Assembly: GCF_028369095.1 (NCBI RefSeq)
Contig: NZ_JAQNDN010000024.1
Coordinates: forward strand, 281,350 to 345,349
Source: Nannocystis radixulma
GTDB taxonomy: Bacteria; Myxococcota_A; Polyangia; Nannocystales; Nannocystaceae
Length of the DNA: 64,000 nt
Direction of reading: 5' to 3'
Shown here: positions 572 to 63,770 of the stretch, one piece after another
How positions within the stretch are numbered: position 1 is the stretch's first letter
How the letters are laid out: every line of letters begins with the position of its first letter
Notes under the pieces: model-generated
Database searches by the model: none
Told to the model about the DNA's origin: nothing
The model's input: only the letters and a program-made list of their open reading frames with translations
Translations under genes and position numbers: made by a program

Positions 572-2683
572 TCACTTCGCGGGTCGGCGCGCGAACTCGG
601 CGTCGAGACGGACGCGGCCGCCGACGACGTCGGCGGCCAGGCGGAAGCCGCGGCCGGTCAGCCACGACTGCAGGAAGCCGGCGTCGCGCGGTCCGCCCTC
701 GAAGCTCGAGACCAGGCGCCACAGGTCGGGCAGCTCGCCGTAGAAGGCGGGGTTCGTCTCCTTGTCGCGCTCGAGGTCGGCGAGCATCCACTTCAGGCGG
801 TCCTGGCCGTCGGCGACGACGATCCAGCCGAACTCGACGTCCTTGTCGGCGAGGCGCACGGTGCCCGGGTCGGTGACGAGGAAGAATTGCGCCGGGGCGT
901 CGGCGCCGGCGATGCTGGCCGACTCGACCTTGGCGTCGACGCCGGGGACGGTGGCCGGCGAGAAGCGCAGCGAGGACAGGCCGACGAGCGAGCGGAACAG
1001 CGCCAGATCCTGGCCCTGCACGCGCGAGTAGGCGACGTAGTCGGTCTGCACGTTGCGATCGGCGAATTGCAAGCTGCGCAGGCTGCCGCCGGTGCCCTCG
1101 ACGCGGCCGACGATGTCGAGCACCGTGCGGATGATGCCGGCCTCCATGCCCTTCTGCTCGCGGCCCCACCGCTCGACCATGCCGAGCGCGCTCGGCCAGG
1201 TCTCGAGCATGACGACGACCGGGCCGAAGTCGCCAGCGTTGTCGATCGCGTCCTTGAAGGCCCGCTCGTCGCGGCCGTAGAGGCCGATGGCGAGCTCGCC
1301 GAGCCCGGCGAACGCGGGCAGGCCGGAGCTGCGCCAGCACGCCAGGGCGCCGTCGCACAGCCCGGCCAGCGTGGGCACGCCGACGCCGGCCTGGGCGCGC
1401 GAGAATGTCTTTTCGGCCAGGTCGGCGGCCGCGCCGTCGGCTGGCTCCCAGGACATGGTCATCTGGACAGTCTCGGGATCGACCGAGGCCTCGAGGCGCA
1501 TGCCGGCGAACATGCGCCGGGTCTCGCGCAGCTGCTCGAGCGCGGCGCGCTGGTTCAGCGCGCGGGTGACCCGCTCGGACCGCTGCGACGGTTCGTACCA
1601 GCGCAGGTCGCCGACGGCGTCGGCGATCTCGACGACCTCGGCCAGCGCGGGCACGGCGGCCGCGTCGGCGTAGGCCGCGAAATCGCCGCGCAGGGTCGAG
1701 AGCACCGGCAGGGTCGCCGGGGCGGCGGCGAGGCCCGAGGTGATGGCGGGGACGCGGTCGGGGTCCCACGCCGCGCCGGTGCCGGCGGGGAACATGAACA
1801 GGTCGAGGACCACGGCCGCCTGCTCCTTGCGCACCACCAGCAGCGCGCTGGCGTCGCCGAAGCAGAACTCGCTGGGGCCGATCTGGCCGCACAGGGTCGC
1901 GATCTCGGGCGGCCGCTCCTTGCGGACCTGACGCGCGAGCAGGCCGGGCAGGGCTGCGGGATCCTTGGCCGGCAGATGGGCACGACTGTGGATCGCCAGG
2001 CTACCTGCCCCTCGGGCCATGGCCTCCTGGTCAGGTGACGGACCGGGCGGCGGCGGCGGCTTCCACGGCTCACTCGGCGGGATCGGCGGCACCGGCTGGA
2101 CGGGCACCGAGTCCTGATACGGCCGCGGCGGGCTCGGCGGCGGCGGCTCGGGGGGCCGGATCGGGGGCGGCGTGGGCCGGGGGCCGGGCCAGGGGGCGAC
2201 GTCGGCCGGCGTGGTGGCGGCGCCGGGGAACGGGTTCGGCAGGCCGGGCGCGCTGCCGGCCCGCTGCAGGGCCTCGCGCACGCCGGGCATGGTGGCGGCG
2301 ATCGGGCGGGCGATCGTGACAGTGACGAAGGCCTCGGGATCGAGGCCGAGGCGCGCGCTGATGTCGTCGACGCGCGGATCGAAGCCGAGATCGACGCCGG
2401 CGCGGGCGACGTCGCGGGCCGTGTCGGGGTCGAGCGGCAGCGACTGCAGGTACTTCTGGAGCGCACCTGGCCGCAAGGCCATGTAGACGAAGCCGCCCTC
2501 GACGAACCCGGGCGTCTGGCTCACGGTCGGCCGCTCGAGCGGCGGCATGCGGGCGTGGATCGCCTTGAGGGCGGGATCGGAGGGGTCGTCGCTGCCGCCG
2601 CCGGCGCCGCCGCGGCCGCAGGCGAGGGCGAGGACCGCAGCGAGACCGAGGCCGAGGCGAGGACGCGCGAGGGCGTGAGGCAT
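572..2683 (-). CDS. Hypothetical lipoprotein with Pro-rich linker
   Basis: The N-terminus (LAAVLALACG) looks like a signal peptide with lipobox. A PPxP-rich linker is followed by 500 aa of balanced composition, with a clean stop. Confidence 0.6.
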   Translation of the reverse strand: MPHALARPRLGLGLAAVLALACGRGGAGGGSDDPSDPALKAIHARMPPLERPTVSQTPGFVEGGFVYMALRPGALQKYLQSLPLDPDTARDVARAGVDLGFDPRVDDISARLGLDPEAFVTVTIARPIAATMPGVREALQRAGSAPGLPNPFPGAATTPADVAPWPGPRPTPPPIRPPEPPPPSPPRPYQDSVPVQPVPPIPPSEPWKPPPPPGPSPDQEAMARGAGSLAIHSRAHLPAKDPAALPGLLARQVRKERPPEIATLCGQIGPSEFCFGDASALLVVRKEQAAVVLDLFMFPAGTGAAWDPDRVPAITSGLAAAPATLPVLSTLRGDFAAYADAAAVPALAEVVEIADAVGDLRWYEPSQRSERVTRALNQRAALEQLRETRRMFAGMRLEASVDPETVQMTMSWEPADGAAADLAEKTFSRAQAGVGVPTLAGLCDGALACWRSSGLPAFAGLGELAIGLYGRDERAFKDAIDNAGDFGPVVVMLETWPSALGMVERWGREQKGMEAGIIRTVLDIVGRVEGTGGSLRSLQFADRNVQTDYVAYSRVQGQDLALFRSLVGLSSLRFSPATVPGVDAKVESASIAGADAPAQFFLVTDPGTVRLADKDVEFGWIVVADGQDRLKWMLADLERDKETNPAFYGELPDLWRLVSSFEGGPRDAGFLQSWLTGRGFRLAADVVGGRVRLDAEFARRPAK

Positions 2684-2982
2684 CGCGCGAGGATACGCCG
2701 ACCGCGACGGGTCAGACAGCCCTCATCGTGCGGCCTGGCGATTCGCCACACCGCGGGCGAGCCGAAGCCGCGAAATCGAGCCGCGTGGCGAACGGCGTGC
2801 GCCGACGCGGCCGGGGCCGTGGCGACCGCGAACGCGAGCGGAGCCCCCGCAGCGGCGCTCCGGCGTCGATCCGTCCCACGGCGCGGACGCGGGCGTCGGG
2901 TTCACGAGACCCGGCGACCGCGCTCTCGACAATCACCGCTGCCCCGCGCGGACGCGAACACGGCCGCGGCGGGGCGGGTGGA

Positions 2983-3552
2983 CTACTTGGCGCACCAGAT
3001 CTCGTACTCGACCATCATGCCCGGGATCGCCAGGGCGTCGACGATCCGCAGGGTGCCGGCGGCCGGCTTGATGTTCACCGGGGCGAAGTAGTCGGCGAAC
3101 AGGCCGAGGATCGCGTTGAACTCGCCGTCGGTGATGTCGGTGGTCATCGTGAATTCGATGCGGACGATGTCCTTGCGATCGTAGCCGGCGTCGTCGAGAT
3201 ATTCGTCGAAGTGGTCGAGGATGTACTGCGTCTGGCCGATCGCGTCGCCGGGGAACTGGATCTGCCCGGTCGAGTCGTGGGCGCCGTGACCGGCGATCAA
3301 AAACAGCTCGTCGATGTTGCGCAGCTTCAGGCCCCAATTGAAGATCGCGCCGAAGTCGGGCGCCTCCGGGTTGGGCACCGCGATCTTCTTGAAATGGCCG
3401 TTGCCGTTGCCGTTGCCGTTACCGTTGCCGTTGCCGTTACCCCAACCGTGGCCATTACCTTGGCCCCAGCCGTTACCCGATACGACTTGGGGTACCGCGA
3501 TCGACATCGAGAGCGCGAGGAGAATCGTCGAAATGAAAACAGGCCGCTGCAT
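2983..3552 (-). CDS. RidA/YjgF/L-PSP family protein with signal peptide and GN-repeat linker
   Basis: The C-terminal 120 aa carry the RidA signature (IVRIEFTMTTDITDGEFNAILGLF...PAAGTLRIVDALAIPGMMVEYEIWCAK). The N-terminus is hydrophobic (MQRPVFISTILLALSMSIA) and is followed by GNGWGQGNGHGWGNGNGNGNGNGNGNGH. Confidence 0.7.
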   Translation of the reverse strand: MQRPVFISTILLALSMSIAVPQVVSGNGWGQGNGHGWGNGNGNGNGNGNGNGHFKKIAVPNPEAPDFGAIFNWGLKLRNIDELFLIAGHGAHDSTGQIQFPGDAIGQTQYILDHFDEYLDDAGYDRKDIVRIEFTMTTDITDGEFNAILGLFADYFAPVNIKPAAGTLRIVDALAIPGMMVEYEIWCAK

Positions 3553-4114
3553 CCCACACCTCCAACGCTACCACGTTACGTGCGCGGCGAACCGGGTGTC
3601 AACGATTATCGATGCCGATGCATCAACTTTGGCGCAGCGCCGCGTACCTTGCTTCACTTCACCCACGGCCGCTGACAGGTGGTTGTCGCCGGCGTATTGA
3701 TCTCATGGGGCAAGATCCGGCGGTTCCGGTGATTGAACCCATGATGATTGCTCGGCCGGGTGCGGCGATGCCGTGCCGCGCGCGACGCTCTCGGGCCGCG
3801 CCTGTCCGCGAGCGCGCCCGTGCGCGGGCGCGGACGCGGTGGAGTGAATATCGGGCGCGGCTGCGCTCTGACAATGTATATAGTGGTCGATGCTCGTCGA
3901 CGGATCCGGGGCGCCGCAAATGTCATTTGGGGACCGGGGCCGCTCGGGTCGTGACAGTGTTCGGTGGCAGACGGCCCCGGTGGTGCGGTCACCTGTCCGG
4001 GGGCGGGAAGAGACGGTGCGTTCGCAGAATGGTGATCCAAGGGACATGTCTCGAGGACAGCTTCGCGCGGCCCGACGATCACGGACGCCCGCGTCCGGCG
4101 TATGCTCGCGCGTG

Positions 4115-5301: not shown

Positions 5302-6411
5302 ATGTCCGAAAACGAGCCCAACCGAGTGCGGGCAGCGCGAGAGGCCTGTGGGATGTCCCAGGTCGAGCTGGCGGAGGCGGCGAACCTGTCGCGCCAGAGC
5401 GTGGGGGCGATCGAGGCCGGGCGGGCGACGCCGGCGGTCGACGTGGCGCTGCGGCTGGCGCGGGCGCTGCACTGTCGCGTCGAGGATCTGTTCGCGGTCC
5501 CGTCCGGCGAGCTGCGGATCGAGGCCGAGCCGGCGTCGGCGGTGCCGACGGGGCGGGTGGCCCTGGCCCACGTCGGCGGGCGCTGGGTGGCGTATCCGCT
5601 GAGCGGCGAGGCGATGCGGCTGGCGGCCGACGCGATCGTGGCGCGGGCGCCCGGGCGGCGCGGTCGGGTCGAGGTCGAGCTGGTGCGGCCGCGGGCCGAG
5701 GCGCAGGGCAACCTGGTGGTGATGGGCTGCGCTGCGGCGCTCGGGGTGCTCGCCGATCGGCTGAGCACCCGCGCCGGGGCCGGTCGCTGCGTGTGGCTGC
5801 CGCGCTCGAGCACGCAGGCTCTGGCGGCGCTGGCGGCCGAGCACACGCACGTGGCCGGGGTGCACCTGGTCGACGGGCGCACCGGCGAGGCCAACGTGCC
5901 CGACGTCCGCAAGCACACCGGCGCGGCGCTGGTGCTGATCACGCTGGCGCGGTGGGAGGCGGGGCTTTTGCTCGCGCCGGGCAATCCGCGGAAGATCCGC
6001 GGCGCCGCCGACCTCGGGCGCCGCGGGCTGCGGCTGGTCGCGCGCGAGGCCGGCTCGGGCGCGCGGCGGTTGCTCGAGCGCGAGCTGCAGCGTGCCGGTC
6101 TGCCGGCGACGCTGGCCGACGCGGCGCCGGTGCGGGCCAGCGGGCACCTCGAGGTCGCGCAGGCGATCGCCAGCGGGGCCGGCGAGGTCGGGGTGGCCAC
6201 GCGCGACGCGGCGCTCGCGTTCGGGCTCGAGTTCGTGCCGCTGGCCGAGGAGCGCTACGACCTGGCGATCCCGCGGGCGCTGCTGGCCGACCCCCGGGTG
6301 CTGCGCTTCCTCGACGCGATGACCTCGGCGGCGTTCCGCCGCGAGCTGTCGTCGCTCGGCTACGACGTGCGCGGCTGCGGCGACCGCGTCGCCGAGCTCG
6401 CGGCCGCCTGA
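5302..6411 (+). CDS. XRE-family HTH transcriptional regulator with C-terminal PBP-like (substrate-binding) domain
   Basis: The HTH_XRE signature is MSQVELAEAANLSRQSVGAIEAGRATPAVDVALRLARAL. A roughly 250-aa binding-protein-like domain follows. ATG at 5302. Confidence 0.7.
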   Translation: MSENEPNRVRAAREACGMSQVELAEAANLSRQSVGAIEAGRATPAVDVALRLARALHCRVEDLFAVPSGELRIEAEPASAVPTGRVALAHVGGRWVAYPLSGEAMRLAADAIVARAPGRRGRVEVELVRPRAEAQGNLVVMGCAAALGVLADRLSTRAGAGRCVWLPRSSTQALAALAAEHTHVAGVHLVDGRTGEANVPDVRKHTGAALVLITLARWEAGLLLAPGNPRKIRGAADLGRRGLRLVAREAGSGARRLLERELQRAGLPATLADAAPVRASGHLEVAQAIASGAGEVGVATRDAALAFGLEFVPLAEERYDLAIPRALLADPRVLRFLDAMTSAAFRRELSSLGYDVRGCGDRVAELAAA

Positions 6412-6462
6412 CCTTCGGGACAGGCAACAACCGACGACGACAATCTGACCTTTGGAGCAGTC

Positions 6463-7470
6463 ATGACGACACGCGTGAAGTTTGTCCTGCTGGCGCTGGC
6501 CGCCGGCTGTGTGCCGGAGCTGGCGACGACGACCGACGAGAGCGAGACCGGGGCGACCGCGGCGACGACCGAGGCCGCGACGGACCCGGGCACGACCACG
6601 AGCGACGACGCGCCGACGACGACCGGGTCGACCGGGGAGCCGGCGCAGTGCGAGACGTTCGCCCAGTACCGCATCGACGTGCAGGCCGAGCCCAACGGGC
6701 TCTACTACCGCGCCGACGAGCAGCGGCTGTACATCGCCGACGACGACAACAACCGCGTGCTGGTGCGCGACGAGGACGGGGCGATCGCGGTGTTCGCGGA
6801 GATCCCCAACCCCTCGAACGACCCCGGCTCGGACGGCCTCGGCGACCTCGACTTCGCGGCCGATGGCACGCTGTTCGTGCCGCGCTTCGGGTTCGGCATG
6901 CCGGGGCTCGGGGCGATCTTCCAGGTCGCGCCCGGCGGCGCGCCGGAGGCGATCGCGGGCGTGAACGACGAGTGGCGGCGGGTCGGGCTCGACCACGACG
7001 ACGCGCGCGGGCTGTTGTGGGTGTCCACGTACTCGCGCGACGCCGACGACGTGTACACCGGCTGGATCGCCAGCGTCGACCCGGTCGCGGGCGTCGAGAC
7101 GATGCTCCTCGGGGGGCTCAGCAAGCCTGTCGGCATCGCGGTGCTCGGCGACACGCTGTTCGTCGGCGACCAGGCGCAGCGGCAGCTGTTCAAGGTCGAC
7201 CTCACGGCCGCCATGCCGGCGCTGACGCTGGTGTCGGACGAGTTCGAGTCGCTCGACCTGATGGAGACGACCCCTGACGGGGCGCTGCTGGTGCTGTCGT
7301 ACGACACCGCCAACAGCACCGGCTACGTCTACCGCGTGACCGCCGATGGCGCGATCACGACGGTCGCGCAGGGCGACTGGGAGCCGCGCGGGATCGCGTT
7401 CGACGGCGTCAGCCGGATCTTCGTGTCGGCCCGCGACACCCAGCAGATCGTGGTCATGCCGGCCTGTTGA
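6463..7470 (+). CDS. Hypothetical lipoprotein (beta-propeller-like)
   Basis: Lipobox LALAAGC, a T/E-rich linker, then a D/G-rich repeat-like body typical of a propeller fold. Confidence 0.55.
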   Translation: MTTRVKFVLLALAAGCVPELATTTDESETGATAATTEAATDPGTTTSDDAPTTTGSTGEPAQCETFAQYRIDVQAEPNGLYYRADEQRLYIADDDNNRVLVRDEDGAIAVFAEIPNPSNDPGSDGLGDLDFAADGTLFVPRFGFGMPGLGAIFQVAPGGAPEAIAGVNDEWRRVGLDHDDARGLLWVSTYSRDADDVYTGWIASVDPVAGVETMLLGGLSKPVGIAVLGDTLFVGDQAQRQLFKVDLTAAMPALTLVSDEFESLDLMETTPDGALLVLSYDTANSTGYVYRVTADGAITTVAQGDWEPRGIAFDGVSRIFVSARDTQQIVVMPAC

Positions 7471-23069: not shown

Positions 23070-24082
23070 TGGATGGCGGCCGCGCAGGCGCCCGGGTCGC
23101 TCTCCCACACGTCGCAGTAGCGGTCGGCGAGGAGGGCGCCGCGGCTGCTGTCGAAGTCGCCGCAGCCGCTGATGTCGTCGAGGGCGTCGAAGCAGCCCGG
23201 GAATTCGTAGGGCACGCCGTTGTCGTCGTACATCTTGAGGCGCAGCTGGTCGCCGATGCACACGGCGCCGTTCGGGCCCCACTCGGCCTCGATGCCCCAG
23301 CTCTGCCGCTCGAGCGTGGCCGGGCTCTGGATCGCCGGGCTGAGCGCGTCGAACACGTCGATCGGCGTGCCGGTGAAGGTGTGCGGGGTGCCGTCGCCGC
23401 AGTAGTCGGCGCGGGCCAATCGCGTGCACGTCTGGTGGTGATCGGCGAGCCCGACGCCGCCGACGGTGGCCCACGGGCGGTAGCCCCACTCGACACACTT
23501 GGCCAGCACGGCGTCGCGGCAGGCGAACGTCACCGCCGTGGGATCGTCGACCCGCGCGCCGGTGGTGGGGTTCCACCAGTTGGCGATCGCTATGGCCTGG
23601 GTCGGCTGGCCGTTGTGGTCGTTGCAGAGGCTCGACCACTGGCTGGTCTCGTTGTCCTGGACGGCGATGTCATAGAACCACACGTCACCGTTCGGGTCGG
23701 CCGGGTCGAGATAGATGTCGTCGAAGCGCAGGACGAAGGTGGTGCCGCCGCCCTCGAGCGTGAGCACCGAACCGATCAGGTCGTCGCCGCTGACGGGCAC
23801 GGGCGTGCCGTCGACGTCATGCGTGGCGGAGAAGCTGCTGCCGACCAGGCTGATGCCGTTGAGGTTCCACCCGTTGAGGTTCCACCCGTTCATGCGCATG
23901 CCGTTGAGGGCGGTGCCGTTCATGCGCATACCGTTGAGGTTCCAGCCGTTGAGCCGCGCGGTATTCAACGCGATGCCGTTGTTTTCGTCGTTGCGTACCG
24001 TAATCGCTGTTCCGTCGTCGTTCCCGACGACATCACAGGCCACCACCGAACCGATGAGCAGAAGGCAGATCCCACGAGTCAT
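23066..24082 (-). CDS. Pentapeptide-repeat lipoprotein
   Basis: [16 protein letters not shown] lipobox and tandem [18 protein letters not shown] pentapeptide-like repeats. It converges on the chloroperoxidase gene with overlapping stop codons. Confidence 0.6.
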
Positions 24083-24398
24083 GAGCTCATCATCTCCTGA
24101 CCGAACTGCATGATCGAGGTCATTGTGGAGCGCAAGCGAGGAGGTTGCGATCCGGATGCAAGCGTCCGGCGTTACGATTGTCCGGTCACGTACGCGCTCG
24201 CATTCGTGCGTCCGTGACACACACCAGGACCGACGCGGCGTGCACCTGCAAAGAAGATCGCAACAATCCCGCTGCGGTCGCCGGCGAGTGATGGGCGCCG
24301 CGGCAGCGATGACACCCGGGCCCACATGCTCGCCGCCGCGAGATGCAGACGGAGGATCGACCGACCCCGATCGACGACCGGGGCCGGTCCGCTGACGA

Positions 24399-25193
24399 TC
24401 ACGCCCCGGAGGCGATCGGCGTCACGTCGGAGGGGATCGGGGCAGTGCGCCCGGGCACGATGCCGCGCTCGGCGAAGTCGGCGATGATCTTGTGGGCCCG
24501 CTCCATGACCTGCGCGAGCTCGGCGTCGGACAGGCCCTTGGTCTCGATCGGCGCGCCGACGTAGATCGTGATCCGGGACGGCGTCAGCAGGTACGAGCCC
24601 TTCTGCATCAGGTCGTACATGCCGTGCGTGGCCAGCGGGATGACCGGCAAGCCGGCGATCCGGGCCATCCAGAACACGCCGCGCTTGAACTCGGCGACCT
24701 TGCCGTCGAGCGTGCGGTGAGCCTCGGGGAAGGCGAGGATCGAGATGCCCTTCTTGGCCCGGTCGCGCGCGGCCTCGGCGATCGCACGGTAGCGGTTGGA
24801 GCCGCTCGGCACCGGGATGCCGTCGGCGAGCTTCATGATCCAGCCGTACATCGGGATCTTGAACTGCCAGGCGTTCATCAGCCCGCAGAAGGCGTGCGGG
24901 ATCGAGGCACAGGCGGCGTGCGCGTCGAGCAGGTTGACGTGATTCTGCATGAACACGCCGCGCCGCTCGGGGTCGAAATCGGGGTCGTAGATGATCTCGA
25001 CGCGGCTCAGCGTGATCTTGAGGACGGCGCCCATGCCGGGCCCGCCGATGTAGTTGTGGGTCTTGCGCGAGGGCACGACGGTGGACACGGCGGCCCACGT
25101 GACGGCGACGGCGCCCATCCACGTGAACGAGACCGTCCAGACGACGGCGGAGTAGACGACCTGAGCTGCCTTCTTGATGAACTTGAACACCAT
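24399..25193 (-). CDS. 1-acyl-sn-glycerol-3-phosphate acyltransferase (PlsC/LPLAT family)
   Basis: The N-terminal TM is followed by the NHVNLLDAH (HxxxxD) motif and the FPEAHRT and ATHGMYD blocks. Confidence 0.8.
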   Translation of the reverse strand: MVFKFIKKAAQVVYSAVVWTVSFTWMGAVAVTWAAVSTVVPSRKTHNYIGGPGMGAVLKITLSRVEIIYDPDFDPERRGVFMQNHVNLLDAHAACASIPHAFCGLMNAWQFKIPMYGWIMKLADGIPVPSGSNRYRAIAEAARDRAKKGISILAFPEAHRTLDGKVAEFKRGVFWMARIAGLPVIPLATHGMYDLMQKGSYLLTPSRITIYVGAPIETKGLSDAELAQVMERAHKIIADFAERGIVPGRTAPIPSDVTPIASGA

Positions 25194-25198
25194 GACGA

Positions 25199-26107
25199 TC
25201 ACGTCCGGACATCGAGCGCGGCCGGGACGACCTCCAGCCGCCGCGGGTTGATCTTGATCATCTCGCCGTCGACCATCACGTCGATGTCGTCGGCGAGGCG
25301 GAGGTCGAGGCCAGGGGCCTGATAGCAGCGCACGGCCGGGTGCTGCACGTGGGTGCCGCTGAAGATCTTGGGGAAGGTGCGCAGGAGCCCGACGCGGCCC
25401 AGGCGGCCGACGCGGATGATGTCGAGCAGGCCGTCGCGCGTGTTGGCGTCGGGCGCCATCATCATCTTGCCGCCGGTGAAGCGGCTGTTGTTGAACGAGA
25501 GGAAGGTCAGCGGCTCCCGATCCTCGGGCTGGCCGTCGATCTGCATCGGGAAGGTGTACGGCCGCAGCGCGGCGACCCGCAGCACGGTGCTCAGGGTGTA
25601 GCCGAACTCGCCCAGGCCGGAGAAGCTGCGGTTGCGGGTGGCGCCGACGTCGGCGACGAAGCCGATGCTGAAGATGTTGATGAAGTGCAGGGCGCCGCGC
25701 GTGTGGGTGCAGCGGATGAGGTCGCACGGGCGCGTCTTGCCGGCGATGATGGCCTCGATCGCGTACTCGGCGCCCTGGTCGGTGAAGTCGCGCAGGAAGG
25801 AGTTGCCTGTCCCGAGAGGCAGCATGCCGAGCGACGGCCGCTCACCCGCGGGCAAGGCGCCGGAGAAGATGCCGTTGATGAGCTCGTAGCTGGTGCCGTC
25901 GCCGCCGACGGCGATGAAGTGGCGCCGCCCGGCGGCGACCGCCTCGCGCGCGACGTCGGTGGCCTGACCGGGCGCCCTGGTCTCGACGACGTCGACCTTG
26001 ACGCCCGACTGCCGCAGCCGCTCGACGGCCGCGGGGGCCCGCTTGCCGCACACGCCGCCGCCGGCGGCTGGATTGACGACTGCGAGGAGTGCGGCCGGAT
26101 CGTGCAT
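25199..26107 (-). CDS. Diacylglycerol-kinase catalytic-domain lipid kinase (YegS/DAGK_cat family)
   Basis: FIAVGGDGTSYELINGI and GMLPLGTGNSF motifs. It ends 5 bp upstream of the plsC start. Confidence 0.8.
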   Translation of the reverse strand: MHDPAALLAVVNPAAGGGVCGKRAPAAVERLRQSGVKVDVVETRAPGQATDVAREAVAAGRRHFIAVGGDGTSYELINGIFSGALPAGERPSLGMLPLGTGNSFLRDFTDQGAEYAIEAIIAGKTRPCDLIRCTHTRGALHFINIFSIGFVADVGATRNRSFSGLGEFGYTLSTVLRVAALRPYTFPMQIDGQPEDREPLTFLSFNNSRFTGGKMMMAPDANTRDGLLDIIRVGRLGRVGLLRTFPKIFSGTHVQHPAVRCYQAPGLDLRLADDIDVMVDGEMIKINPRRLEVVPAALDVRT

Positions 26108-26137
26108 GGGTGCAGCCTATCAGGCCCCGGAGGACGA

Positions 26138-27853
26138 TTACAGCTCGCGCAAGGCGAGGGCGCGGCCGAGCGGCTTGAGCTCGCGGGCGAGAGGGTCGCG
26201 CTTGATCTTCTGCGAGGCGGTGCGCGGGAACTCGCGCTCCCACAGGACGTAGGCGGAGATCCGCTTGTAGTCGGCGAACTGGCGGTTGCGCTTGCGGAAG
26301 GCGTCGATGACGTCGGCCCGCGCGGCCTCGTCGAGGCCGGCCTTGGGCCGCACGACGACGATCAGCTGCTCGTCGGTCATCTTGCCGGTCGGCCAGATGA
26401 AGTTGGCCGCGAACACGCAGAACTCCTCGCAGTCGTCGATGTCGCCGAAGGCGGCCTCGATGTCCTCCGGATAGACGTTCTTGCCGCCCTCGGTGACGAT
26501 CATGTTCTTGGTGCGACCGAGCAGCTTGAGGTGCCCGGCGGCGTCCATGGTGCCGAGGTCGCCGGTCCGCAGCCAACCATCGACGATCGCCTCGCGCGTC
26601 AGCTCGGGCGCGTCGAGATAACCCAACATGACGGTGGGACCGCGCACCCACACCTCGCCGACGCCGCTCTCGTTGACGTCGCGCAGCTCGATCTCGGTGC
26701 CCTCGACCGCCTTGCCGACGCTGTCGCCGCGGAACGGCTTGAGGTCGTTGACGGTGAGGACGGTGCCGGCCTCGGTGAGGCCGTAGCCGATCACGACCGG
26801 CAGCCCGAGCCGGTTGAAGTACTCGGCGCTCTGCCGGTCGACGAAGGCGCCGCCGCAGAACATGAGCCGCAGCTTGCCGCCGAAGTACTCGTGGATCGGG
26901 GCCAGCAAGGTCTTGCTCAGCCCGTGGTTCGGCGCCTGCCGCGTGGCGTACTCGTTGATGTCCATGAGCCCGTCGAGCACGAGCCGCTGCCACTTCGGCA
27001 GCTCGGCGATCTTGTCCTTGATCTTCTTCTCGAGGGTCTTGAGGATCGTCGGCACCAGCGCCATGTGCGTGATGCCGTAACGCTTCATGGTGCTGGCCAG
27101 ATAGGCCGGCCTCAAGGTCCGCTGGTGGACGACGGCGCCGCCCATCATCAGCGCGAGCAGAAAGCCGCACATGAAGTCGATGGCGTGGTTGGTCGGGAGG
27201 ATCGAGAAGTATCGATCACCCTCGCTCAGCGGGTAGAGGTTGCCGAGCGTCTCGGCCTGCGCCATGTAGTTGGCGTGCGAGAGCTGGCAACCCTTGGCGG
27301 CTCCGCCGGTGCCCGAGGAGTAGACGATGCAGGCGACGTCCTCGCGCGCTCGCGCGTGGAAGGTGAAATCTGACCCCTGGGGCAGGTCCTCCCAGCGCAG
27401 CGCCCGGCCGATGTTGGCGCCCTCGGGCGCCTCGGTGACGATGACGAGGGTGCGCTCGAAGATCGAGGGATCCTCGCGCTGCAGCTTGTCCCACGCCGGC
27501 CACTCCGCGAGCACGACCCGCGGCCGACAGTGCGCGAGCAAGGCGTGCTGCTCGGGCGCGGTCAACTTGTAGTCGATGGGGACGAGGACGGCGCCGGCCC
27601 ACAAGGCCCCGGTGGCGCCGATGAGCCACTTCGACTGGTTCTGCATGACGATCGCACAGCGATCGCCAGGCCCGAACCCGTGAACCTGCAGGCCAGCCCC
27701 GAACCGCTCGGCCTGCGCTCGCAGCTCGGCGAAGGTGTGGCGCGAATTCTCGCGGTGCCGATCGGCCTCGATCAGCGCGACGCGGCTCTTGTACGTGATG
27801 GTGGCGTCACGCAGCGCCTCGCCCAGGCAGGACAGCTTTCCCAGGTCGAGCAT
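26138..27853 (-). CDS. Fatty-acyl-AMP ligase / AMP-dependent synthetase
   Basis: YSSGTGGAAKGCQLSHAN (AMP-binding motif), GYGLTEAG, TGDLGTMDAAGHLKLLGRTKNMI. Its start abuts the ACP stop. Confidence 0.85.
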   Translation of the reverse strand: MLDLGKLSCLGEALRDATITYKSRVALIEADRHRENSRHTFAELRAQAERFGAGLQVHGFGPGDRCAIVMQNQSKWLIGATGALWAGAVLVPIDYKLTAPEQHALLAHCRPRVVLAEWPAWDKLQREDPSIFERTLVIVTEAPEGANIGRALRWEDLPQGSDFTFHARAREDVACIVYSSGTGGAAKGCQLSHANYMAQAETLGNLYPLSEGDRYFSILPTNHAIDFMCGFLLALMMGGAVVHQRTLRPAYLASTMKRYGITHMALVPTILKTLEKKIKDKIAELPKWQRLVLDGLMDINEYATRQAPNHGLSKTLLAPIHEYFGGKLRLMFCGGAFVDRQSAEYFNRLGLPVVIGYGLTEAGTVLTVNDLKPFRGDSVGKAVEGTEIELRDVNESGVGEVWVRGPTVMLGYLDAPELTREAIVDGWLRTGDLGTMDAAGHLKLLGRTKNMIVTEGGKNVYPEDIEAAFGDIDDCEEFCVFAANFIWPTGKMTDEQLIVVVRPKAGLDEAARADVIDAFRKRNRQFADYKRISAYVLWEREFPRTASQKIKRDPLARELKPLGRALALREL

Positions 27854-28087
27854 CTAGCGCCTCGCGTCGATCTTCTGCGCCAGAGCAGCGAAGGTCTTGA
27901 TCCCCTGGAGCTCGTAGTCGGGCAGCTCGACGTCGAACTCGTCCTCGACGTCCGAGATGAGCTCGACGGCCTGAAAACTGTCGATGCCCAGGCGCTCGAA
28001 CAGGTCGTCCTCGGCGCGGAGCTTGGCCGGGTCGGCGCCGAAGCGCTTGGCGGCGAGACGGATGAGTGTGTCGAGAGTGTCGCTCAT
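27854..28087 (-). CDS. Acyl carrier protein
   Basis: 78 aa with LGIDSFQAVELI around the phosphopantetheine Ser, followed by an acidic helix. Its stop is adjacent to the ligase start. Confidence 0.7.
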   Translation of the reverse strand: MSDTLDTLIRLAAKRFGADPAKLRAEDDLFERLGIDSFQAVELISDVEDEFDVELPDYELQGIKTFAALAQKIDARR

Positions 28088-28129
28088 CGGATTTGCTCTC
28101 AATGTTCTGCTTCTGCTGTCGGGACGGGA

Positions 28130-29250
28130 ATCAGGCGTCGGGGTTCACGCGTGCTCGGACGCGGGGCGACTCGGGCGGCTCGGACGAGAGGCGTCGAGGC
28201 TCGCGTGTGCGGGGACGCGGGGCCGCGGGGAGCGGCTCAGGCGAGAGGCGTCGAGGCTCGCGTGTGCGGGAACGCGGGGCTGCGAGGAGCGGCTCAGGCG
28301 AGAGGCGTCGAAGATCGCGTGCGCGGGGACGCGGGGCCGTGGGGAGCGGGGAGGGGCGGCCCCGCGGCGGCGGAGCGGGTCCCTCGCGACGCGAGACCTG
28401 CCATGCCACATGCTCGACGCGGAAGGGCGATGGGGCATGTCCGAAGATTGATCCCGCGTCTGCGCGTGAGGCATGGGGCCCCTCGCTGCGTCCCACTCCG
28501 CCGCCGCGAGGCCGCCCCAGAAGATTGTGGTGGGCCCCGCTTGTCGTGAGGCGGAGAGGGTCGCTTCAAGCGCAAGAGAGGAGGCCGTGGCGGGCCCCGC
28601 TTGTCGTGAGACGGAGAGGATCGCTTCGAGCGAGAGAGCGGAGGTCGTGGCGGGCCCCGCTTGTCGTGAGACGGAGAGGATCGCTTCGAGCGAGAGAGCG
28701 GAGGTCGTGGCGGGCCCCGCTTGTCGTGAGACGGAGAGGATCGCTTCGAGCGAGAGAGCGGAGGTCGTGGCGGGCCCCGCTTGTCGAGAGGCGGAGGCGG
28801 TCGCTTCGGCGGCGGTGCCGGAGGCCGCGAAGGGCATCGTCGGTTCAAGCGGAGAAGCGGAGGCCGTGCCTGCTCGTTCAGACATGTTTCTCGAAGCAGG
28901 GCCGAAGGGACAGCCGAGCGGCGATGAGCGGGGCCGCTCGACGATCGTCTGGGTCGGCCCGGGCGCGGCGGAGTGGGACGCAGCGGGGGGCCCCATGCCT
29001 GGCGCGCAGACGGCGAGAGAACCTTCGGAAAGCGGAGAGCAAAACATCGCCGGCGAGCACCTGGCATGGCAGGTCTCGCGTAGCGAGGGACCCGCTCCGC
29101 CGCGCCCGGGCCGACCCACCCGGGTCTTCGTGGCCCCGCGCCCGCGCGGAACAAGAGACGAGCCGCAGTTCGAGACCTCGCGCCCACGCGGAACAAGAGA
29201 CGAGCCGCAACTCGTGAGCCTCTCATCGCCGCGCACAACCAATGCCACGC
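28130..29250. repeat. Composite repeat element: minisatellite A (about 57 bp x3, 28176-28346), core with CATGTCCGAAG motif, minisatellite B (60 bp x5, 28532-28830), partial inverted copy of the core (about 28890-29110), second short tandem (about 42 bp x2, 29120-29200)
   Basis: Direct reading shows near-identical tandem units (GGGCCCCGCTTGTCGTGAGACGGAGAGGATCGCTTCGAGCGAGAGAGCGGAGGTCGTGGC x5). Reverse-complement similarity links 28340-28500 to 28960-29100, and the ORF-track proteins here are repeat-driven. Confidence 0.75.
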
Positions 29251-29313
29251 CACCCGAATGTCTGCGGGTCCTGGTCCGTGGTTGGACGCGAGCAGGGCGG
29301 GCGCGAGCAGGGC

Positions 29314-30087
29314 TCATGGCAGGTAGGGCCGCAGGTCGGTGGATTCGACGAAGCGCTTGAGGGCGGCCAGCAGTGCGGGTCCCTGGGCCAGGCGGACGAA
29401 CAGCTCGCGCTCGGCGAGGAGCTCGTCGGTCGGGAGCTTCTTGATGAAGGCCTTGGCGGCCTTGCGCGCCGTCGGATCGAACTTGGCGGTCTGGGCCGCG
29501 AGGGCGCGCGCGGCGGTGATGCCCTCGCCGCCGGCGACGACCTGGCTGACGAGGCCGGCGGCCTGGGCCTTCTTGGCGTTGATGCTGCGGCCGCTGAGAA
29601 GGAGGTCGCGGATGAGGCCGTTGCCGACGTCGCGGCGCAGGCGCGGGATCCCGCCGAAGCCGGGGACGACACCGAGGCGCAGCTCGGGGAAGCAGAAGCG
29701 GGCCGACTTCTCGGCGATGAGGACGTCGCAGGTGAGCGCGAGCTCGAAGCCGCCGCCGAAGCAGACGCCGTGGACGACGCCGACGGTGGTGAGCGGCAGC
29801 ATGTCGAGGTCGTCCATGACGCCGTGGATCTCGTCGATGAACTTGCGGATCTGCGGGCCGTGCTGCTCGGCCGGGGCGTCGCACAGGCCGCGGTAGAGCT
29901 CGCGCAGGTCGGCGCCGGCGCAGAAGCCCTGGCGCAGGCCGCTGCGGAGGATGAGGGTGTGGGCGTCGCGATCGATCTGGTCGATAAAGCGGCGCAGATC
30001 GGCGAGCATCGCCGTGCCGATCTCGTTGCAGGGCGGCGTGGCGAGGGTGAGCTCGTAGACGCCGCTGTCGTAGGTCCAGTCGATCAT
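29314..30087 (-). CDS. Enoyl-CoA hydratase/isomerase (crotonase family)
   Basis: FCAGADL oxyanion motif and VHGVCFGGGFELALTCD. The ATG overlaps the upstream ligase stop (ATGA). Confidence 0.8.
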   Translation of the reverse strand: MIDWTYDSGVYELTLATPPCNEIGTAMLADLRRFIDQIDRDAHTLILRSGLRQGFCAGADLRELYRGLCDAPAEQHGPQIRKFIDEIHGVMDDLDMLPLTTVGVVHGVCFGGGFELALTCDVLIAEKSARFCFPELRLGVVPGFGGIPRLRRDVGNGLIRDLLLSGRSINAKKAQAAGLVSQVVAGGEGITAARALAAQTAKFDPTARKAAKAFIKKLPTDELLAERELFVRLAQGPALLAALKRFVESTDLRPYLP

Positions 30088-31718
30088 GACGCGTAGGCCC
30101 TGTCGATCTCGGCGCGGTAGCGCTGCTCGACGGCGCGGCGCCGCAGCTTCTGGTTGGCGGTGAGGAGGCCGTTCTCGATGGTGAACGGGTCGGCGACGCG
30201 GATGAAGGCGCGGATCTTCTTGTAGTGCGGGACGCTGGCGTTGACGACCTCGAGCGCGGCGTCGATGTCCTCCTTCGGGACGTCGCCAGGGACGATGATG
30301 CCGAGGAAGGGACGCGCGTGGCCGACGAGCATGCACTGCTCGGCGCGCGGACAGGCGGTCATGAACTTCTCCTCGATCGGCTCGGGGGCGATGTTGTGGC
30401 CCGACTCGGGGACGAGGATGTTCTTGACGCGACCGATGATCCGCAGGTTGCCGGTGTGGTCGAGCTCGCACTGGTCGCCGGTGTGGAACCAGCAGTCGCG
30501 GATGGCCTCGGCGGTGGCCTGCTCGCGCTTCCAGTAGCCGGCGAAGATGCCCGGGCCGCGCACCAGCAGCTCGCCCTCGTCGCTGAGCTTGAGCTCGCAG
30601 CCGCCGATGGCGTGGCCGACGTAGCCGGGGCGCACGCCGCCGGGGGTGTCCATGGTGACGATCGCGGTGGTCTCGGTCAGGCCGTAGACCTGGTAGACCT
30701 GCACGCCGATCAGCTCGAACCACCACTGGGTCTCTTCGGCGAGCGCGGCCGAGCCGCAGATCAAGAACTCGAGGCTGGGGCCGACCTGCTGCTTGATCTT
30801 GCTGAAGACGAGCTTCTTGGCGAGGGCGAGGGTGAGCCTGTCTGCAAGGCCAGCTTTGCCTTCGCGCTGGCGGCGGAAGGCGGCCTGGCCGCGCTGGTAG
30901 AGGGCGAGGGCGACGCCGCCGCGCTCCGCGATCTTCTTGCCGACGCCGTTCTTGATCCGCTCGAGCACGGCGGGGACGTTGAGGTAGTAGTGCGGATCGG
31001 CCGCGCCCATCTCGGCGACGAGGTTCTGCAGGTCGGTCGACAGCAGCAGCGGGTTGCCGCGGTACAGCTGCGTCCACAGCATGATGCGCGAGCCAGCGAA
31101 GCAGAACGGCAGAAAGTGGAACACCTTGTCGGCCCGCTGCCCGCCGGTGATCTTGTCGACGCTGCTGCGGGTCTGCGGCAGCATGTAGTCGACGTTGGCG
31201 CGGGTAAGGACGACGCCCTTGGGCTCGCCGCTGGTGCCGGAGGTGTAGATGATGGTGACCGGATCGGCGGGCGCGACCGGACGCGGCGGCTCGTGCACCG
31301 GGTCGCCGCGGAGGACGTCGCGCAGGTCCTCGATCGGGCAGTGCTCGGGCCAGGCGCCGCGCAGGCCGGCGGCGAGCTCGGGGCCGTCGGCGATGACGAG
31401 CACGGGGCTGCAGTCCTTGACCATGACGGCCAACTCGCGCGGGTCCTGGCGGCTGTAGAGCGGGACGACGATCGCACCTTCGAACAGGATCGAAAGGTCA
31501 GCCGCGACCCACCGCGCGGAGTTGGGGGCGAGCAGGGCGACGCGGTCGCCGGGCTTGACGCCGGCGCGGCGGAGGAAGCCGCGCGCGTGGGCGACGAGGT
31601 GCAGCAGCTGCGCGGCCGAGGTCGGGCGCCGCTCCTTGCCGTGGAGCTCGATGAGCAGGTGATCCTCGCGGGTCTTCTGGACCGCGGCGTGGATGACGTC
31701 GAGGAAGTTGTCGCTCAT
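30084..31718 (-). CDS. Long-chain-fatty-acid--CoA ligase (AMP-dependent synthetase)
   Basis: IIYTSGTSGEPKGVVLTRAN, YGLTETT, TGDQCELDHTGNLRIIGRVKNIL. The ATG overlaps the upstream stop. Confidence 0.85.
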   Translation of the reverse strand: MSDNFLDVIHAAVQKTREDHLLIELHGKERRPTSAAQLLHLVAHARGFLRRAGVKPGDRVALLAPNSARWVAADLSILFEGAIVVPLYSRQDPRELAVMVKDCSPVLVIADGPELAAGLRGAWPEHCPIEDLRDVLRGDPVHEPPRPVAPADPVTIIYTSGTSGEPKGVVLTRANVDYMLPQTRSSVDKITGGQRADKVFHFLPFCFAGSRIMLWTQLYRGNPLLLSTDLQNLVAEMGAADPHYYLNVPAVLERIKNGVGKKIAERGGVALALYQRGQAAFRRQREGKAGLADRLTLALAKKLVFSKIKQQVGPSLEFLICGSAALAEETQWWFELIGVQVYQVYGLTETTAIVTMDTPGGVRPGYVGHAIGGCELKLSDEGELLVRGPGIFAGYWKREQATAEAIRDCWFHTGDQCELDHTGNLRIIGRVKNILVPESGHNIAPEPIEEKFMTACPRAEQCMLVGHARPFLGIIVPGDVPKEDIDAALEVVNASVPHYKKIRAFIRVADPFTIENGLLTANQKLRRRAVEQRYRAEIDRAYAS

Positions 31719-33196
31719 GCGTGGCGCTCCAGCAGGCGCTGGACGTTGGGCGGCAGCGGCGGCAGGTGGGCGTCCCAGGTGCGCGGGAGGTCGCGCCGCG
31801 GGAACTGGGGATAGACGCGCACGACCTCGTCCATGAAGTCGATGCCCATCTGACCCATGAGCTTGAGCTGGGCCGGGACGGCGCGGGCGATGTCGGCGCT
31901 GATGGCGTCGGCGTCGCGCCACAGCCGGCGTAGGGTGTGCAGCAGCTTCTCGCCGAGGTCGTCCTCGTCGACCTCGAAGAACATGTCCGGGTGGCCGCGA
32001 TCGTTCATGAGGTTGCGGATCCGCTCGTCCATGGTGACGCCGGCCGAGGGCACGAGGCCCGGCATCGAGGTGACGATCGCGTGGAAGCGGGAGCTCACCA
32101 TCATGCTGCAATTGCGCAGCACGCTGACGAGGTCGAACATGTCGTGCTCGTCGCTGACGAACAGCGCGCCGCCGCGGTCGAGCCGCGGCTGCAGGTCCTC
32201 GCAGGCGTGGCGGTCGAGCTGCTCCATGCCGACGAGGATGGTGAAGAACTCGCGCTCCTGCGCGAAGGCGTTGACGCCGTCGGCCAGGGCCTGGATGTAG
32301 TTGTTGTACTTCTTCTCCGCCGCCTCGCTGTGGTGGTGGAAGTAGAAGGCGCTGTAGTGCTCGTGCTTGTACTGACCGCCGAGCTTGTAGGCGGCGTACT
32401 TGAGCAGGTCGGGCTTGACCGGCCACCAGAACGGGTTGATCGGGCAGACGACCAGGACCTTCTGGCGGCCGTCCCAGCCGGCGTCGCGCAGGAGCTGAGC
32501 GCCGCGCGACAGCGGCGCGGGGTCGAAGGTCCAGGCGGTGTCGGCCCCGGAGGTGGTGCGGATCCCGAGCTCGCCCAGGACCTGGCGCGAGGGCTCGTTG
32601 CGGCAGATGACCAGCGACTTCTTGCAGGCGTCGCGCACGAAGTCACGCAGCCCCGGGGTCATGTTGCCGGCCTCGGCGCCGTAGCCGACGCTGATCTTGT
32701 TCTCGGCGTTGGCGAGGCCGAGCGAGCCGGCCATGAAGCAGGTCAGCGCGCTCGAGAACTTCGACTTGAACATCGAGCCCTCGCACGCGATGACGCCGTG
32801 GTGCTTGGGGCACTCCTGGGCGATGAACTTGGGGAACACCGCCGGCAGCTCGATCTGGTGGACGGCGCGGAAGTAGCCGCGCGTCAGCTTGGGATCGACG
32901 GTCATGATCGTCAGCTCGAGGTCGTCGTCGCCGACGACGTGGCGCAGCTGGCGGATCATCTCCTCGACGCGGACGTCGGCGCCGGTGTTGCGCGTGCCGA
33001 CGTAGCCGGCCAGCAGCAGCTTGAGCGGCTTGCCCGGCTTCCACGTCTCCGGCGACATGCCGAGGACGTGGCGCACGGCGACGCCCTCGATCGCGGCGGC
33101 GACGGTGGCCTGGAGGGCGCGGTCGGGGTCGACGACCTCCTTGACCTTGTCCCAGATCTTGCTGGTGGTCTTCTTGACGGGTGCGCTCTTGGACAT
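31715..33196 (-). CDS. Polysaccharide pyruvyl transferase family protein (PF04230-like)
   Basis: 493 aa with balanced composition. The glycosyl/pyruvyl-transferase-like Rossmann halves match the family (LLAGYVGTRNTGADVRVEEMIRQL..., SSRFHAIVTSMPGLVPSAGVTMDERIRNLM). Confidence 0.6.
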   Translation of the reverse strand: MSKSAPVKKTTSKIWDKVKEVVDPDRALQATVAAAIEGVAVRHVLGMSPETWKPGKPLKLLLAGYVGTRNTGADVRVEEMIRQLRHVVGDDDLELTIMTVDPKLTRGYFRAVHQIELPAVFPKFIAQECPKHHGVIACEGSMFKSKFSSALTCFMAGSLGLANAENKISVGYGAEAGNMTPGLRDFVRDACKKSLVICRNEPSRQVLGELGIRTTSGADTAWTFDPAPLSRGAQLLRDAGWDGRQKVLVVCPINPFWWPVKPDLLKYAAYKLGGQYKHEHYSAFYFHHHSEAAEKKYNNYIQALADGVNAFAQEREFFTILVGMEQLDRHACEDLQPRLDRGGALFVSDEHDMFDLVSVLRNCSMMVSSRFHAIVTSMPGLVPSAGVTMDERIRNLMNDRGHPDMFFEVDEDDLGEKLLHTLRRLWRDADAISADIARAVPAQLKLMGQMGIDFMDEVVRVYPQFPRRDLPRTWDAHLPPLPPNVQRLLERHA

Positions 33197-33206
33197 GTTC
33201 GAAGGG

Positions 33207-63290: not shown

Positions 63291-63308
63291 GGTTCAGCGG
63301 CGCAACAG

Positions 63309-63340
63309 CATGACCGCCGGGACATGTCCTGGCGGTCATG
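63309..63340. terminator. 32-bp near-perfect palindrome CATGACCGCCGGGACATGTCCTGGCGGTCATG followed by T-rich run, 19 bp after the PBP gene stop
   Basis: 13-bp arms around the ACATGT core, then GCTTTCTGC. Confidence 0.4.
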
Positions 63341-63379
63341 TCGCTTTCTGCGGGTCGGTCGCCGGCCTGGAGCGTCACC

Positions 63380-63670
63380 ACCCCGGCAGGTACGGCGAGA
63401 GGCGTCGAGGATCGCGTGCGCGAGGACGCGGGGCCGTGGGGAGCGGGGAGGGGCGGCCTCGCGGCGGCGGCGCGGGTCCCTCGCGACGCGAGACCTGCCA
63501 TGCCACATGCTCGACGCGGATGAGCGATGGGGCATGTCCGAGGATTGATCCCGCGTCTGCGCGTGAGGCATGGGGCCCCTCGCTGCGTCCCACTCCGCCG
63601 CCGCGAGGCCGCCCCAGAAGAGTGTGGCGGGCCCCGCTTGTCGTGAGGCGGAGGTGGTCGCTTCGAACGA
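63380..63670. repeat. Second copy (about 290 bp, single-unit version) of the composite repeat found at 28.3-28.6 kb
   Basis: About 95% identical by eye to 28290-28590 and includes the GGGGCATGTCCGAGGATTGATCCCGCGTCTGCGCGTGAGGCATGGGGCCCCTCGCTGCGTCCCACTCCGCCGCCGCGAGGCCGCCCCAGAAG core. Confidence 0.7.
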
Positions 63671-63715
63671 GGGCGTCGCTCGATCGGCAGGGGGGGTCTT
63701 GTATGCCCGAACGAA

Positions 63716-63747
63716 CAGGGCCGTGGGGACATATCCTCACGGCCCTG
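63716..63747. terminator. Hairpin CAGGGCCGTG-GGGACATATCCT-CACGGCCCTG followed by TCTTTTCGC; likely bidirectional terminator 24 bp after the stop of the minus-strand edge gene
   Basis: 10-bp GC stem, a loop containing a degenerate ACATGTCC motif, and a T-run. Confidence 0.4.
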
Positions 63748-63770
63748 TCTTTTCGCACCTGCCTGAACGC

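Follow-up and report, generated by a model that had tools for sequence, protein, structure and literature searches.

Within the 64-kb stretch of the Nannocystis radixulma genome analyzed here (contig NZ_JAQNDN010000024.1; hereafter the window, meaning the whole 64,000 nucleotides), a minus-strand lipid gene cluster is interrupted by a puzzling noncoding gap. It measures 1226 bp, occupies positions 28088–29313, and separates the gene for a crotonase from that for an acyl carrier protein (ACP). What is this block, and how did it come to lie between the two genes? A first-pass annotation, written by a model, had described it as a repeat element, and we tested that description. We found that the block is very probably a decayed, nonautonomous derivative of an IS1182-family insertion sequence (IS) of Nannocystis, resembling either a miniature inverted-repeat transposable element (MITE) or a foldback element. 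Thus, the gap would be transposon debris and not a regulatory device.

The block contains two inverted modules, each centered on a long hairpin that we refer to as the core. In the list below, TIR-1 and TIR-2 denote the two terminal inverted repeats (TIRs) to which the modules were assigned:

28119–28349, plus strand: array A, 3.8 copies of a 57-bp unit plus a degenerate outermost unit (Tandem Repeats Finder, TRF, 28133–28349, 85% matches; alignment to IS termini).
28353–28518, plus strand: core 1, an imperfect long hairpin of 166 nt whose terminal stem measures 27 nt (inverted repeat; core hidden Markov model, HMM, E 1e-51).
28527–28808, plus strand: array B, 4.7 copies of a 60-bp unit (TRF, 94% matches, the three central units identical).
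28809–28949, no strand assigned: junction between the two ends, with a degenerate B-like unit (28839–28868) and the TIR-2 inner segment (GAGCGGCCCCGCTCATCG, minus strand; repeat family and alignment).
28950–29118, minus strand: core 2, the second hairpin core, inverted, whose terminal stem spans 28 nt at 96% complementarity (inverted repeats; core HMM, E 9.5e-47).
29127–29210, minus strand: two copies of a 42-bp unit (repeat search, 88%).
29211–29313, no strand assigned: residual spacer beside the crotonase stop codon; homology with a short-spacer relative (L002, described below) ends at window position 29298.

The inverted arrangement was evident from a BLAST alignment of 28927–29148 with 28541–28322 (77.8% identity over 225 nt, E 1e-42). 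Unit A is significantly similar to the 42-bp unit when the latter is reverse-complemented (p = 0.006). The first-pass annotation had reported arrays of 57, 60, and 42 bp together with an inverted, diverged core, and all of these were present at essentially the positions it had assigned; the core string that it quoted was located at 28433–28483. Two of its details did not hold. The core, which it called unique, recurs in the window, as 28297–28567 matches 63394–63664 with 96% identity by BLAST, and the weak relatedness that it saw between units A and B was no better than chance (shuffle p = 0.24). We also considered and rejected the possibility that the A- and B-unit motifs are general genome-wide short repeats, since their matches in the window are confined to copies of the element. 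The B-unit motif gave six matches where 0.76 were expected, all of them within element copies, and the sole A-unit match elsewhere in the window, at 16231 with three mismatches, is at chance level.

The identity of the element emerged when a two-block pattern of the core was scanned against metagenomes. Three contigs (L020, L021, and L022) were found. In L020, a plus-strand core is followed by a 460-aa open reading frame (ORF) and a minus-strand core. This ORF scored 362.9 bits against NCBIfam NF033551 (cutoff 270) and contains the Pfam domains DUF772 and DDE_Tnp_1_6; its predicted product is an IS1182-family transposase. Between the two inverted cores of L021 only fragments of the transposase are retained, and those of L022 enclose nothing but tandem repeats. 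A protein search detected a transposase homologue with 84% identity in N. pusilla, where two copies of the element (L023 and L024) are 99.86% identical over exactly 2087 bp and lie in unrelated contexts with unrelated flanks. The inverted ends of this unit, each of 295 bp, match one another at 95.6% identity and contain the matches to the core HMM, and the unit terminates in CTAG on either side. Because the core matches lie within the ends of this 2087-bp unit, the hairpin core together with the segments on both of its sides constitutes the TIR of a mobile IS. The IS1182-type transposase is present in L020, L023, L024, and L026, and the long inverted ends of this Nannocystis lineage measure 230–295 bp across N. 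pusilla and the metagenome contigs.

Each IS end consists of three parts: a terminal segment of about 57 nt, a long hairpin of about 166 nt, and an inner segment with the motif GGCCCCGCTTGTCG. In an alignment of eleven copies, three of them from the window, these modules were colinear from the IS terminus to that inner motif. Array A runs colinear with the outermost ~57 nt of the IS (CTAGGAGCCTG...ATCGCG...GACGCGGGGCC), while the units of array B all begin with GGCGGGCCCCGCTTGTCG, a motif located just inside the core in every IS copy. Judged by this alignment, array A represents the tandemly amplified outer terminal segment of TIR-1, core 1 its central module, and array B its amplified inner segment; likewise, core 2 represents the central module of TIR-2 and the 42-bp array its amplified outer terminal segment. 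Every part of the block is homologous to the IS ends, and the full IS is mobile as one unit. The derivation of the block from IS1182 ends is therefore well supported by sequence comparison. A tblastn search of the whole window with the L020 transposase returned no match better than E = 4. We also tried the reverse assignment, with the B-like motif as the true IS end and the cores as a mere target. It was ruled out by the identity of L023 and L024, which extends through the cores to CTAG, and by the outer terminus that the Nannocystis IS has in common with a distant relative, L030.

This relative, found on metagenome contigs (L030, 1376–3176; also L032 and L033), is 1801 bp long and encodes a transposase with 74% identity; it has CTAG ends and 19-bp inverted repeats. 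The terminus GAGCCTGCGCA is common to the Nannocystis IS and to L030, L032, and L033. In these three, the module of terminal segment, core, and inner segment is found only at the 3' end, directly after the transposase stop codon. Because the L030-type relative carries the module only 3' of the transposase gene, we infer that an inverted duplication of this 3' end gave rise to the long ends of the Nannocystis elements, and that the original role of the hairpin was probably one for the IS itself, as a terminator or insulator or in end recognition.

A typical member of the IS1182 family, ISPse1, is 1653 bp long, with 16-bp inverted repeats and a 4-bp target duplication (PMC3281130). The parent element fits this family in that its transposase scores above the NCBIfam IS1182 equivalog cutoff and in that its CTAG ends are compatible with a 4-bp target duplication. 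It departs from it in its size of 2087 bp and in its ends, which are not ~16 bp but 230–295 bp each with a 166-nt hairpin. The block in the window shares with the parent the inverted modules at both ends (28322–28541 and 28927–29148), colinear with the ends of L023 and L020, but lacks a transposase. This documents an IS1182 lineage with hairpin-bearing ends of about 295 bp, apparently produced by inverted duplication of a 3' end.

Next, we compared the crotonase–ACP spacing in orthologous operons. The two genes overlap by 4 nt in L028 and are separated by 10 nt in L029, by 94 nt in L027, and by 117 nt in L002. The neighboring AMP-binding protein is 83% (L028), 73% (L029), and 89% (L027) identical to that of the window, and the L002 sequence has 92% nucleotide identity to the window. 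The distant relatives, L028 and L029, thus have only an overlap or 10 nt between the two genes. The block is absent from all four of these loci and present in the window and in Nannocystis sp. SCPEA4 (GCA_026626685.1), which we regard as a sister strain of the window source because its flanks are 97% identical. The tight arrangement in L028 and L029 represents the ancestral state, and the block has therefore entered a once-coupled junction as a derived insertion. The first-pass annotation had placed it at the junction of two sub-operons. This is misleading, as the site was ancestrally one tight, translationally coupled junction. Its suggestion of a MITE-like insertion agrees with our results, given that the cores and array units are homologous to the long IS1182 ends and that orthologous operons lack the block.

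The corresponding gap in SCPEA4 has the same layout and measures 1330 bp. It differs in the arrays: the 42-bp unit is present in 8.2 copies in SCPEA4 (TRF on L001) versus 2 in the window, array A in 3.4 versus 3.8 copies, and array B in 4.5 versus 4.7 copies, with indels. The annotation had thus correctly anticipated that copy number would vary between strains, while its proposal of a recombination hotspot is borne out only weakly, by the instability of the arrays. Such arrays provide a variable-number tandem-repeat marker between near-identical Nannocystis strains. Tandem arrays also occur on both sides of the core in N. bainbridge (L011, 6600–7650) and in the metagenome contig L022 (1100–2500), where they comprise a 40-bp unit in four copies, repeats of 113–204 bp, a 186-bp unit in two copies, and a 90-bp unit in two copies. 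Array growth beside the hairpin is a recurrent property of this repeat family, and the recurrence fits slippage associated with the hairpin.

These observations are consistent with the following course of events. IS1182-type ends would have inserted into the translationally coupled crotonase–ACP junction, where the two ends now face each other without a transposase. After the insertion, the segments flanking the hairpins would have grown into the 57-, 60-, and 42-bp tandem arrays, with replication slippage or unequal exchange as the likely routes, and the arrays are still changing between strains. Because the downstream genes are intact and conserved, we presume that the lipid operon continues to be expressed, whether transcripts read through the 1.2 kb of structured RNA or start at a promoter carried by the element. 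A translationally coupled gene pair can be split by 1.2 kb of highly structured DNA with the downstream genes intact.

Several observations weigh against this account. The window ends match each other at only 78% identity, as compared to 93–98% for the ends of transposase-bearing copies; the pair in L022 is similarly low, so that the window and L022 pairs both fall at 78–80%. Neither the canonical terminus CTAGGAGCC nor a target-site duplication or CTAG is recognizable at the borders of the window element, whereas CTAG is present at both ends of L023, L024, and L030. Full-length IS copies with cores of the window type were seen in metagenome contigs only and not in cultured genomes. The 19-mer ACGCGAGACCTGCCATGCC, invariant in the known window-type cores, had a single occurrence in the genome of N. 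bainbridge and a single one in that of N. punicea; the scan of genome contigs with it gave 13 matches, of which 11 were chance hits in unrelated taxa. Last, the short spacers of L002 (396–485) and L027 (112–205) hold a stretch that is 88% identical to unit A (shuffle p ~3e-4). The history of the insertion was therefore not one clean step, and this stretch may be the footprint of an earlier insertion or deletion.

Like MITEs, the block combines inverted ends that share homology with an autonomous IS with the lack of a transposase, is intergenic, and shows presence/absence polymorphism at orthologous sites. Copies of its module also exist elsewhere. In contrast to MITEs, it is inflated by the arrays to ~1.1–1.2 kb, beyond the usual size of less than about 600 bp; its two ends now share only 78% identity, and its eroded termini show no recognizable target duplication. 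BOX elements of Streptococcus pneumoniae are modular, with a boxB module that varies in tandem copy number, and the Foldback elements of Drosophila have long inverted ends made of tandem subrepeats, often without coding capacity. The block resembles the former in its modular build with a tandemly variable module and the latter in its inverted ends built of subrepeats. It has no sequence relationship to either, and it differs in that the parent transposase family has been identified and the arrays flank a long hairpin on both sides. Thus, the block is an IS derivative of a known kind with some unusual traits.

The core recurs elsewhere in the window, at a second locus that holds a solo module:

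63394–63671, plus strand: one A unit, a core (63450–63615), and one B unit (BLAST, 96% over 271 nt; core HMM, E 2e-50).

Together with the block, it brings the census of the window to three cores at two loci within 64 kb. The solo copy lies where two convergent genes meet. It is bracketed at 63308–63345 and 63717–63753 by GC-rich hairpins, each with a T-rich tract behind it, which resemble the terminators of these genes, and the copy is thus located exactly between the two. Further solo modules were found in L011 (N. bainbridge) and L015.

These solo copies bear on the most serious alternative, in which two or more solo-end modules inserted independently and landed head-to-head, each module of about 290 bp being a near-palindrome that spreads alone as a foldback-type MITE. 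The 96% identity of the solo copy to the core-1 module points to recent copying of a single end, and in N. pusilla the whole IS end folds as a single extended palindrome. Furthermore, cores 1 and 2, at only 78% identity, group with different copies in the identity matrix. Since only 8% divergence separates the flanks from those of the short-spacer relative, the two ends of one insertion are unlikely to have diverged to 78% in place. On the other hand, inverted pairs recur in the window, L022, L021, and L020, as predicted for a two-ended element, and L021 directly shows an internal deletion of the transposase. In addition, the inner border of the solo module showed neither a target duplication nor an inverted terminus. 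On balance, we slightly favor a single, internally deleted IS as the source of the block, and consider independent landing of solo ends a real but less probable route.

In the sister strain SCPEA4, we observed that the modules have themselves been targets of insertion. The equivalent of the solo copy (window 63450–63615) is split there by a 1308-bp IS110-family element (L019, 9840–11147) encoding a 318-aa DEDD transposase. Its insertion point, GGCATGGGGCCCCT|CGCTGCG, is equivalent to window 63579/63580, lies in the most conserved motif of the core, and has CT on both sides. A second contig of this strain (L025, JAPNJX010000004.1) carries a full IS1182 copy with an IS110-family element in each of its inverted ends (2307–3684 and 5457–6834), inserted at GCGGGTCCCT|CGCGACGG, again with CT on both sides. 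The protein of these elements is 323 aa long and 42% identical to that of L019, and the IS1182 transposase of the same copy is shortened to 415 aa. Assignment to IS110 was based on the DEDD and Transposase_20 domains (Pfam) and on NCBIfam NF033542, at 238 bits.

The 5' noncoding regions of these elements contain strings that match both their targets and their own ends. In L019, these are ATGGGGCCCC, identical to the left flank of the target, and ACGGTTG, identical to the right end of the element; in L025, they are GGGTCCCT and ACAACTG, respectively, and the noncoding region also holds the reverse complement of the right target flank, TCGCGAG. This is the pattern that would be expected of bridge or seek RNAs (PMC11208160, PMC11187229). 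An Rfam match to sX15 in the IS110 noncoding region was disregarded (E 0.26, 23.8 bits versus a gathering score of 55). Parallels appear among the works cited in PMC11187229, whose reference list includes IS621 in repetitive extragenic palindromic (REP) sequences and IS4321/IS5075 in the ends of Tn21. Similarly to these precedents, the SCPEA4 elements occupy fixed sites in a hairpin belonging to the end of a different transposon and are bordered by CT to the left and right. Unlike them, the target is the end hairpin of an IS1182-family element, and the two elements, at 42% identity, each use a different arm of the same hairpin. They are located in the sister strain and not in the window.

The IS110 elements probably parasitize the IS1182 ends and disable them. 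A more far-reaching proposal, which we put forward only tentatively and consider rather unlikely, is that the end module of about 290 nt is both a foldback unit that moves on its own, with flanks growing as minisatellites, and a dedicated landing pad for no fewer than two bridge-RNA IS110 lineages, each programmed separately for one arm of the hairpin. If so, the system would represent parasitism at three levels, in which IS110 exploits the IS1182 end and the latter exploits a host operon, and IS110 insertion would disable the IS1182 ends. In either case, two IS110-family elements on the two arms of one hairpin offer a natural example that may be useful for studies of natural retargeting.

The attraction of IS110 elements, which according to the reference list of PMC11187229 (Choi et al. 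2003) also insert into REPs, could suggest that the module is a host repeat of the REP type, or one of its composite forms (BIME or REPIN), that is mobilized by a RAYT (Y1) transposase and merely attracts ISs. The extragenic placement, including the site between convergent terminators, and a palindrome kept by compensatory changes would both fit. However, the module belongs to a unit that moves with an IS1182 DDE transposase, and in the distant relative it forms an internal part of the IS, immediately following the transposase gene on its 3' side. Its palindrome spans 166 nt of a ~290-nt module, as compared to 20–40 nt for REPs and ~100 nt for REPINs. Moreover, PF01797 (RAYT, Y1) was carried by no called gene in the loci examined, and the exact motif occurs once per 13-Mb N. 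punicea genome. We therefore consider an origin as a host repeat highly improbable.

Next, we evaluated the hairpin itself. The transcribed strand of core 1 is predicted to fold at −121.7 kcal/mol (z −6.8). Among 13 cores from five genomes and metagenomes, compensatory double changes were present in 24 of the 53 predicted pairs, and the hairpin is maintained by covariation. The internal core motifs CTCGCGACGCGAGACCTGCCATGCC and GGCATGGGGCCCCTCGCTGCGTCCC are near-invariant within the window type. A very stable and covarying structure on the transcribed strand might be taken as a sign of a dedicated cis-regulatory or attenuator RNA, a small RNA, or a retron-like gene of the lipid operon; the first-pass annotation had indeed offered a structured regulatory or attenuator region. 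This did not withstand the comparison with other loci, as the module also occurs in unrelated contexts and in both orientations and as the orthologous operons, whose genes overlap or lie 10 nt apart, do without the block. No reverse transcriptase gene was found nearby. Rfam gave no match at the gathering score in the whole window and none at E ≤ 1 in 27900–29500, a search that included retron msr/msd and riboswitches. A dedicated RNA function in the operon is accordingly very unlikely. A scan of the gap for sigma-70-type promoters, the only type searched, revealed no sigma-70-like site, and a terminator scan found one weak terminator-like site within the 42-bp unit, which does not exceed the shuffle expectation.

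The least tenable explanation, that the gap codes for a repeat-rich protein, draws on the gap-spanning ORFs of 295–383 aa in several frames and can be dismissed, because long ORFs in all frames are expected at 70–80% GC, the 42- and 60-bp arrays vary in length between strains with indels, none of the five largest gap ORFs matched Pfam at E ≤ 0.01, and the equivalent gap of SCPEA4 has no called gene. This bears out the earlier statement that the gap contains no credible protein.

The genes on either side of the block are the following:

27854–28087, minus strand: ACP gene, 77 aa, downstream flank of the element (Pfam PP-binding, E 1.8e-13).
29314–30087, minus strand: crotonase/enoyl-CoA hydratase gene, upstream flank of the element (Pfam ECH_1, E 1.6e-35).

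The crotonase stop codon occupies 29314–29316. A 15-bp direct repeat in two copies (29284–29313; GGACGCGAGCAGGGC and GGGCGCGAGCAGGGC) abuts this stop codon, outside the IS-derived modules. The ACP protein is identical in five contigs, that of SCPEA4 and four Logan contigs, and the AMP-binding protein of the cluster is 99% identical in SCPEA4. An exact-protein look-up of the crotonase found no record; its counterpart in SCPEA4 is a called gene of 257 aa. The minus-strand cluster as a whole (24172–33200) comprises genes for PS_pyruv_trans, an AMP-binding enzyme, the crotonase, the ACP, a second AMP-binding enzyme, a DAGK/YegS-type lipid kinase, and an acyltransferase, in an order that is kept across Nannocystaceae metagenome contigs (L028 and L029). 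Last, where synteny between SCPEA4 and the window ends, near window position 23074, the SCPEA4 contig carries a pair of genes with HTH_32 and DDE_3 domains, an IS630-like transposase pair (L001, 11097–12234), which is another strain-specific IS insertion beside the lipid cluster.

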